Origin: a virus
Taxonomy: Duplodnaviria > Heunggongvirae > Uroviricota > Caudoviricetes
Reading direction: 5' to 3' (one strand)
Length of the DNA: 12,017 nucleotides
IMG/VR virus record: IMGVR_UViG_2526164649_000015
Shown here: positions 3,684 through 4,917 of the stretch, piece by piece
Numbering within the stretch: the stretch's first letter is position 1
Layout: every line of letters starts with the position of its first letter
The notes under the pieces: generated by a model
What the model was told of the DNA's origin: nothing
Seen by the model: the letters and a program-made list of their open reading frames with translations, nothing else
The model's database searches: none
Program-made: the position numbers and the translations under genes

Positions 3684-3724
3684 TGAAGTGGCACACTGAA
3701 TTTGGCCACCTGAACAGAGGTGAT

Positions 3725-4057
3725 ATGCTCACCTCAGAACAACACAGGTGCTCCAATGAAAAAAGAAATTTTAGCGCAGAGTTTAAACGCGAATCCGCTC
3801 AACTGGTTGTTGACCAGAAATACACGGTGGCAGATGCCGCCAAAGCTATGGATGTTGGCCTTTCCACAATGACAAGATGGGTCAAACAACTGCGTGATGA
3901 GCGTCAGGGCAAAACACCAAAAGCCTCCCCCATTACCCCGGAACAAATTGAAATCCGTGAGCTCAGGAAAAAGCTACAACGCATTGAAATGGAGAATGAA
4001 ATATTAAAAAAGGCTACCGCGCTCTTGATGTCAGACTCCCTGAACAGTTCTCGATAA
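3725..4057 (+). CDS. IS911-like OrfA (helix-turn-helix/leucine-zipper protein); canonical start out of frame, alternative in-frame ATG at 3725
   Basis: The ATG at 3756 followed by A6 (3759-3764) is one base out of frame with the body; canonical IS911 OrfA begins MKKRNF (ATG plus A7, from memory). In-frame ATG at 3725 would give [20 protein letters not shown]...; stop at 4055-4057. Confidence 0.6.
4006..4012 (+). other. A-AAA-AAG -1 frameshift heptamer of the IS911-like element
   Basis: tt[a aaa aag]gct in the OrfA frame, the canonical IS911 slip site. Confidence 0.75.
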
Positions 4058-4909
4058 TCGGGAAACTCAGAGCGCATTATCCTGTGGTCACACTCTGCCA
4101 TGTGTTCGGGGTTCATCGCAGCAGCTACAGATACTGGAAAAACCGTCCTGAAAAACCAGACGGCAGACGGGGCTGTATTACGTAGTCAGGTACTTGAGCT
4201 ACATGGCATCAGCCACGGTTCGGCCGGAGCAAGAAGCATCGCCACAATGGCAACCCGGAGAGGCTACCAGATGGGACGCTGGCTTGCTGGCAGGCTCATG
4301 AAAGAGCTGGGGCTGGTCAGCTGTCAGCAGCCGACTCACCGGTATAAACGTGGTGGTCATGAACATGTTGCTATCCCTAACTACCTTGAAAGGCAGTTCG
4401 CCGTGACCGAGCCAAATCAGGTGTGGTGCGGTGATGTGACCTATATCTGGGCGTACCTCGCCGTTGTTCTCGACCTGTTCGCAAGAAAACCAGTGGGCTG
4501 GGCCATGTCGTTCTCGCCGGACAGCAGGCTCACCATGAAAGCGCTGGAAATGGCATGGGAAACCCGTGGTAAGCCCGGCGGGGTGATGTTCCACAGCGAT
4601 CAGGGCAGTCATTATACGAGCAGGCAGTTCCGGCAGTTATTGTGGCGATATCAGATCAGACAGAGTATGAGCCGGCGCGGAAACTGCTGGGATAACAGCC
4701 CAATGGAACGCTTCTTCAGGAGTCTGAAGAACGAATGGATGCCGGTGGTGGGTTACGTAAGCTTCAGCGAGGCAGCTCACGCCATAACGGACTATATCGT
4801 TGGATATTACAGCGCACTAAGACCGCACGAATATAACGGTGGGTTACCCCCAAACGAATCGGAAAATCGATACTGGAAAAACTCTAACTCGGTGGCCAGT
4901 TTTTGTTGA
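4012..4909 (+). pseudogene. IS911-like OrfB (DDE transposase), disrupted by a frameshift at a G4 run and a 5-codon in-frame gap in the catalytic core
   Basis: The -1 frame after the slip site reads [53 protein letters not shown] and stops at 4183-4185. The rest of the transposase ([12 protein letters not shown]... to stop 4907-4909) is in the next frame, joined at GGGG 4169-4172. Core reads [14 protein letters not shown] against DLTYVATQEGWLYLAGIKD in the neighbouring OrfB. Confidence 0.75.
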
Positions 4910-4917
4910 CCACTTCA

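Follow-up and report, generated by a model that had tools for sequence, protein, structure and literature searches.

An IS911 copy with a 15-bp deletion in its transposase core and two probable homopolymer miscalls at a rearranged Shigella flexneri-type locus

Introduction

IS911 is a member of the IS3 family and moves by a copy-out/paste-in route; decayed IS copies are commonplace in Shigella-type genomes. IS911 is bounded by inverted repeats (IRs) of 36 bp and relies on programmed −1 frameshifting at an A AAA AAG heptamer (PMC2909936). The folded full-length OrfAB protein binds these ends poorly, its catalytic domain masking the DNA-binding domain, and the engineered truncation OrfAB[1-149] is reported to bind the IRs and to pair the ends without catalysis (PMC2909936). 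Where an insertion sequence lacks its target duplication, the loss is attributed mainly to recombination between IS copies and to adjacent deletions (PMC11708052).

The window considered here, that is, the whole stretch of 12,017 nucleotides that was analysed, contains an element of this kind. The initial annotation, made from the letters alone, described it as an IS911-like copy that keeps its ends and slip site, carries three coding lesions and could still be mobilised in trans. The account favoured here, at a probability of about 0.7, is that the element is a resident IS911 with one inherited 15-bp in-frame deletion, and that its two frameshifts are miscalls of the draft assembly AKMV01; nothing shows the copy to have moved since. 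It would reside in a Shigella flexneri-type chromosome, where IS elements have scrambled the junction of a truncated IS600 with the remnant of a prophage.

Identity and layout of the element

Over positions 3684-4917 the window is 98.4-98.5% identical, gaps counted, to the annotated IS911 of phage Sf6 and of S. flexneri pCP301, with two to three substitutions, and thousands of database records annotated 'IS3-like element IS911 family transposase' match this interval. The copy begins with TGAAGTGG and ends with CCACTTCA; its 36 terminal bases on either side form the imperfect inverted repeats, starting 5'-TGAAGTGG, that characterize IS911, and they are the same as in the Sf6 reference. The entire frameshift region, heptamer included, is also that of the Sf6 reference, with orfA and orfB in the phase 0/−1 arrangement, so that the intact ends and slip site of the initial annotation are borne out. 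Judged by its near-identity to reference IS911 over the full length, the element is IS911, neither a variant family nor a new kind of element (Table 1).

Window 3670-4930 was aligned with two other IS911 copies, that of phage Sf6 (NC_005344, annotated there as mobile_element IS911) and an intact one from E. coli EC28. This three-way alignment returned exactly the three differences that had been listed from the letters alone: a run of six A in place of seven (A6/A7), a run of four G in place of three (G4/G3) and a 15-nt deletion. In comparison with the references (Sf6, pCP301), the window copy thus has the same ends, layout and slip site but departs from them by these three changes and by the lack of a 3-bp target duplication, its left flank ending in ACC and its right flank opening with GAA. 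The missing duplication points to a rearrangement after insertion and is no argument against the identity of the element. A reference IS911 with A6, G4 and the short core, which would have made these features canonical, was looked for: none of the other reference copies that were compared has G4 or the deletion, and few finished E. coli genomes show A6.

Table 1. Features of the IS911 copy and of its two flanks, in window coordinates
Position	Strand	Feature	Basis
2825..3683	-	Left flank: truncated IS600 adjoining IS911, reduced to the 3' part of orfB	99.7% identity to annotated IS600; transpos_IS3 and rve matches
3684..4917	+	IS911 copy, 1234 bp (reference copies 1249 bp)	Alignment to annotated IS911
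3684..3719	+	IRL, the 36-bp left terminal inverted repeat; no difference from reference	Alignment
3725..4057	+	110-aa ORF in the OrfA body frame, from upstream in-frame ATG inside IRL; A6 state only	Sequence; profile match to HTH_Tnp_1
3756..3764	+	orfA ATG followed by A6; −1 change, probably a base-calling error	A7 in references and in orthologous copies of L003 and L004
4006..4012	+	A AAA AAG programmed −1 frameshift heptamer, intact	Sequence; alignment
4169..4172	+	G4 run; +1 change seen in this assembly alone, against G3 in every other copy compared	Alignment
4183..4185	+	TAG met by the incoming orfB frame because of G4	Sequence
4433..4435	+	First catalytic Asp codon (GDVTY), five residues upstream of the deletion	HTLV-2 integrase core alignment; rve match
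4446..4450	+	15-nt in-frame deletion junction; of the flanking direct repeat, the copy kept is CTGG at 4447-4450	Alignment
4598..4600	+	Second catalytic Asp codon (HSDQG)	Sequence; HTLV-2 integrase core alignment
4706..4708	+	Catalytic Glu codon (PMERFF)	Sequence; HTLV-2 integrase core alignment
4882..4917	+	IRR, the 36-bp right terminal inverted repeat; no difference from reference	Alignment
4918..6022	+	Right flank: defective prophage remnant (start), with a tail and baseplate module behind it; no 3-bp repeat matching the left flank	Flank comparison

Orthologous loci

An exact-product look-up of a neighbouring phage gene yielded three long loci with the same context, L003, L004 and L005. The window is 100% identical to L005, the NCBI draft contig AKMV01000020.1 of assembly GCA_000268085.1. 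L004 lies on the finished chromosome CP024470.1 and, compared with window 1965-4918 (2,954 nt, running from IS2 over the IS600 fragment as far as the IS911 end), shows no substitution and three 1-bp homopolymer indels; an IMG/VR contig (L024) carries the same sequence as L004. The IS911 copy of L004 (1721-2954) shares with the window copy the left flank (the IS600 fragment ending in ACC), the 15-nt deletion and the SNPs, among them the T at 4183, but it reads A7 and G3, and its annotated transposase is a frameshift product of 384 aa with no interruption. Its right flank is unlike that of the window: prophage genes (4.3 kb) come first, then an intact IS600, then a second IS911, intact and inverted, ahead of the same phage remnant. 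In L003, on the finished chromosome UGYT01000001.1, the IS911 between the same two flanks as in the window is free of the deletion, reads A7 and G3 and yields a 389-aa product.

The two frameshifts

As assembled in the window, the orfA and orfB frames are each additionally broken by a 1-bp homopolymer change, and both breaks had been correctly located beforehand. The run that follows the orfA ATG is A6 where both aligned references have A7; read from this ATG, the frame gives MKKEILAQ... and closes after 38 codons at a TGA (3870-3872), the OrfA body being open in another frame. Downstream, the frame that leaves the heptamer reads ...DGRR-GCIT and, because of the G4 (G3 in the references), stops at the TAG, the rest of orfB continuing one frame over in an ORF at 4100-4909. 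The C-to-T change at 4183 that creates this TAG is synonymous in the true orfB frame (CGC to CGT) and is common to the orthologous copy of CP024470.1. The 220-aa product specific to the combination of G4 and deletion is on record, by exact-product look-up, only in AKMV01; the same look-up with the 269-aa ORF at 4100-4909 gave no match, the start chosen by the annotators being a different one (220 aa).

These two changes belong to a set of four one-base homopolymer differences that set the 12 kb of the window apart from L003 and L004: T6/T7 at 2868, A6/A7 at 3758, G4/G3 at 4169 and A6/A7 at 9048. At all four sites L003 and L004 agree with each other against the window, three of the six 7-mers that L003 shows over this span are one base shorter (6-mers) in the window, and the window and L004 differ by no substitution over about 10 kb. 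The run at 9048 is A7, with an intact Baseplate_J gene, in all ten other assemblies fetched (L003, L004 and eight more, read-run assemblies included). The differences are therefore confined to homopolymers, private to one assembly and unaccompanied by substitutions, and four indels without a substitution, weighted towards 7-mers and limited to one draft, are the signature of miscalled homopolymers, not of mutation. Miscalls in draft bacterial assemblies look much the same, as they fall in mononucleotide runs, mostly turn 7 into 6 and cause apparent frameshifts in genes that are intact elsewhere, the likeness being one of pattern. It is thus likely that A7 to A6 and G3 to G4 are base-calling errors of the draft AKMV01 or, at best, changes private to the strain. 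Several points temper this attribution: homopolymer slippage is a real mutational mode too, A6 is present in some finished records (an ETEC plasmid lineage and CP026871.1), a change from G3 to G4 affects a short run and is a less typical miscall than 7 to 6, and the strain of the window and that of CP024470.1 are different isolates, in which private mutations are possible.

As for the other two sites, A6 at 9048-9053 splits Baseplate_J (413 aa elsewhere) into 249 and 155 aa (ORFs 8341-9090 and 9114-9581). T6 at 2868-2873, which is T7 in both finished genomes and in most other IS600 copies, falls near the outer end of the IS600 fragment, in the part that this fragment shares with the truncated LysR-type ORF; the draft contig carries another IS600 copy, and that one reads T7.

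The same points can be turned into a case for taking the sequence as given, with two further slippage frameshifts added to the inherited deletion. Homopolymer slippage is a genuine class of mutation, finished records do contain A6 copies, and IS copies of Shigella-type genomes are often pseudogenes, as illustrated by an 11-nt deletion in one of the IS911 copies compared (L022) and by an IS91-family insertion in another (L023). The copy would then yield either a short peptide from the ATG at 3756 or an N-terminally extended OrfA from the ATG at 3725, together with a truncated OrfAB ending at the TAG at 4183. Such a history is unlikely: four homopolymer indels and no substitution against CP024470.1 over about 10 kb are not what natural mutation produces, the baseplate gene broken by one of these indels is whole in all ten other assemblies fetched, and the G4 state was found nowhere else. 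Of the three coding lesions initially described, the deletion thus stands as inherited, while A6 and G4, both absent from the otherwise identical copy of CP024470.1, are not supported as biology.

With the frameshifts taken as artefacts, the real copy would still make OrfA and, by −1 frameshifting, a full-length OrfAB lacking part of its core; an OrfAB with a damaged core would leave the copy non-autonomous. That two of three apparently pseudogenising lesions vanish once the same locus is read in a finished genome calls for caution, as homopolymer errors raise the number of 'defective' IS copies counted in draft assemblies.

The deletion in the catalytic core

The 15 nt CTGGACGGGTAAGCG of the references are absent between 4446 and 4447, leaving the junction GACCTATATCTGGGCGTACCTCG and turning YIW-TGKRW-AYLA into YIW-AYLA. 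The five residues reported as missing between YIW and AYLA are indeed gone, and they are gone as well from the orthologous copy of CP024470.1 and from the IMG/VR contig. Being common to independent records at the same locus, the deletion is real and inherited. In the common IS911 the deleted stretch is flanked by CTGG...CTGG, and in the sister allele (L003 and the second copy of L004) by the 7-nt repeats CTGGGCG...CTGGGCG, so that replication slippage between short direct repeats is its most likely origin.

All three residues of the catalytic triad are kept, but the spacing of the two Asp falls from 59 to 54 residues and the rve match is shortened to 94 residues on 101 profile positions. When intact OrfB is aligned with the catalytic core of HTLV-2 integrase, TGKRW lies between the Asp-bearing strand and the next strand. 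Its loss would thus remove the hairpin after the β-strand that bears the first catalytic Asp of the DDE core and bring the two Asp five residues closer along the chain. In retroviral-integrase-type folds, loss of this hairpin is expected to disrupt the RNase-H-like core. By homology of fold, the deletion probably inactivates or cripples the transposase. A slippage deletion beside the first catalytic Asp would be textbook IS decay in a Shigella-type genome and raises no open question.

It could be objected that the deletion is neutral, the shortened transposase being active and the copy autonomous if both frameshifts are set aside. The reading frame is kept across the deletion, the DDE residues are all present, and the protein still scores strongly for both rve and transpos_IS3. 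This is nevertheless improbable, as the hairpin directly following the strand of the first catalytic Asp is gone, and an active allele would sit ill with its absence from about 17,700 E. coli places and with its single left junction in genomes that are rich in IS911.

The E. coli plasmid pDS26_129 (L025, at about 1230-1250) shows a different deletion, of 10 nt (CGTACCTCGC), immediately downstream of the site deleted in the window. As the top E. coli match, this plasmid had been considered as a carrier of the same deletion and was rejected on account of its own, adjacent one. The neighbouring sites suggest that the sequence following the first catalytic Asp, which is rich in GC and contains repeats, may be prone to deletion.

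The A-tract of orfA in other IS911 copies

At most 20 of the 4,411 matching records from complete E. coli genomes are in the A6 state, and 7 of those belong to a single ETEC plasmid lineage; the A6 context has no match in the GTDB species representatives, among which Shigella is probably not separately represented. The 110-aa product specific to A6 is also found at seven other loci in four draft assemblies with nearby accession prefixes (AFGY, AFHD, AKMX and AKMZ), and at one locus each in the finished CP026871.1 and in assembly CAJFAQ01. These A6 copies could reflect either a systematic undercalling of A7 or a true slippage hot spot.

The nine other loci (L014 and L016-L023, with IS911 at about 5960-7207 of each), two of them in finished or near-finished assemblies, hold A6 copies that are mostly otherwise intact, apart from those with the 11-nt deletion and the IS91-family insertion, and three of the nine have clean 3-bp duplications (ATC, TCT and CCC). 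A 217-aa orfB call common to L014 and L023 had raised the possibility of a second shared lesion, which was rejected: L014 is otherwise intact and its short call results from the choice of start codon. In the window, the A6 state opens the OrfA body frame from an ATG at 3638 in the IS600 flank, across IRL, to the orfA stop (139 aa; 3638-4057). The in-frame ATG at 3725, which annotators chose as start for the 110-aa call, is preceded by GAGG at 3717-3720. A scan of 3600-4100 found no consensus promoter.

A bolder proposal takes the hot spot at face value: the A7 tract in orfA codons 2-4 would switch IS911 off and on by slippage, A6 and G4 would be real in this copy, and the copy would make the OrfA starting at ATG 3725 and an OrfAB(1-139) that binds the ends without cutting them. 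The latter, predicted as OrfAB residues 1-139 followed by GCIT if G4 is real, is nearly the same as the engineered OrfAB[1-149], from which it would differ in being natural, and in a Shigella genome laden with IS elements, where IS911 copies are many, it could act on them as a trans-dominant brake. The protein probably does not exist if G4 is a sequencing error, and the proposal as a whole is a long shot.

Flanks, rearrangement and mobility

The IS600 fragment on the left amounts to the 3' 860 bp of that element, in minus orientation, with a truncated LysR-type gene and then IS2 beyond it. On the right, the first six bases of the phage remnant, GAATGG, abut the right end of IS911 in the window (4917/4918), in L003 and in the independent read-run assembly L012, and its left end in L004 (8470/8471) and in L011; the IRR-GAATGG and the IRL-GAATGG junctions both recur in independent read-run assemblies. 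In L004 the deleted copy has a right junction of its own at 2954/2955, and the inverted IS911 pair encloses the 4.3 kb of prophage genes and the IS600. The single IS911 copy of L003 has the interior of the second copy of L004.

Simple homologous recombination between the inverted IS911 copies was considered and dropped, as it cannot interconvert the IRR-GAA and IRL-GAA junctions. A deletion between directly oriented end sequences of the inverted pair, whose ends share CCACTTCA and GGTGGCCA, would yield the structure of the window and is put forward as a suggestion. The missing target duplication shows that the IS911 copy has served as an endpoint of rearrangement. That its peculiarities belong to no single copy, the stretch being a collapsed or chimeric consensus, might be supposed of a draft contig that crosses several multi-copy elements (IS2, IS600 and IS911) and whose neighbouring IS911 is oppositely oriented in another genome, but this is scarcely credible, since the 15-nt deletion, the T at 4183 and the C at 3955 exactly match the single copy beside the same IS600 fragment in finished CP024470.1, and the IRR-GAATGG junction is also present in finished L003 and in L012.

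Perfect ends make the window copy formally a non-autonomous element on which intact IS911 copies could, in principle, act, so that the mobilisation in trans proposed in the initial annotation is mechanistically possible; the poor end binding of full-length OrfAB argues against efficient action of this kind. Every instance of the deletion junction in the collections searched (the window and L005, L004 and L024) adjoins the same IS600 fragment, so that one left junction accounts for all of them. The deleted allele is absent from 5,426 complete E. coli genomes, from 72,556 plasmids, from phage records and from the GTDB species representatives, where the junction has 0 matches and Shigella is probably not separately represented. 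It was thus not seen at several loci, each with its own target duplication, as would be expected of an allele moved in trans; the single left junction and the lack of a 3-bp duplication lend the proposal no support, and there is no evidence that the copy has moved since the deletion.

The two ORFs to the right of IS911 (76 and 289 aa; 4920-6022) have no Pfam or NCBIfam match. In the orthologous loci they head a tail/baseplate module recognized by the profiles Pam3_gp18, E217_GP41, Sheath_initiator, Baseplate_J, Phage_Wedge1 and Caudo_TAP, which in L003 and L004 is followed by a metal ABC transporter operon. On the far left of the window, a full-length IS2 at 790-2121 is 99.7% identical to the IS2 annotated in phage SfX, with TnpA and TnpB profiles matching end to end; it lies between a hydrolase-like gene fragment (1-636, minus strand) and the LysR-type regulator gene (2395-2904) that is cut off by the IS600 fragment.
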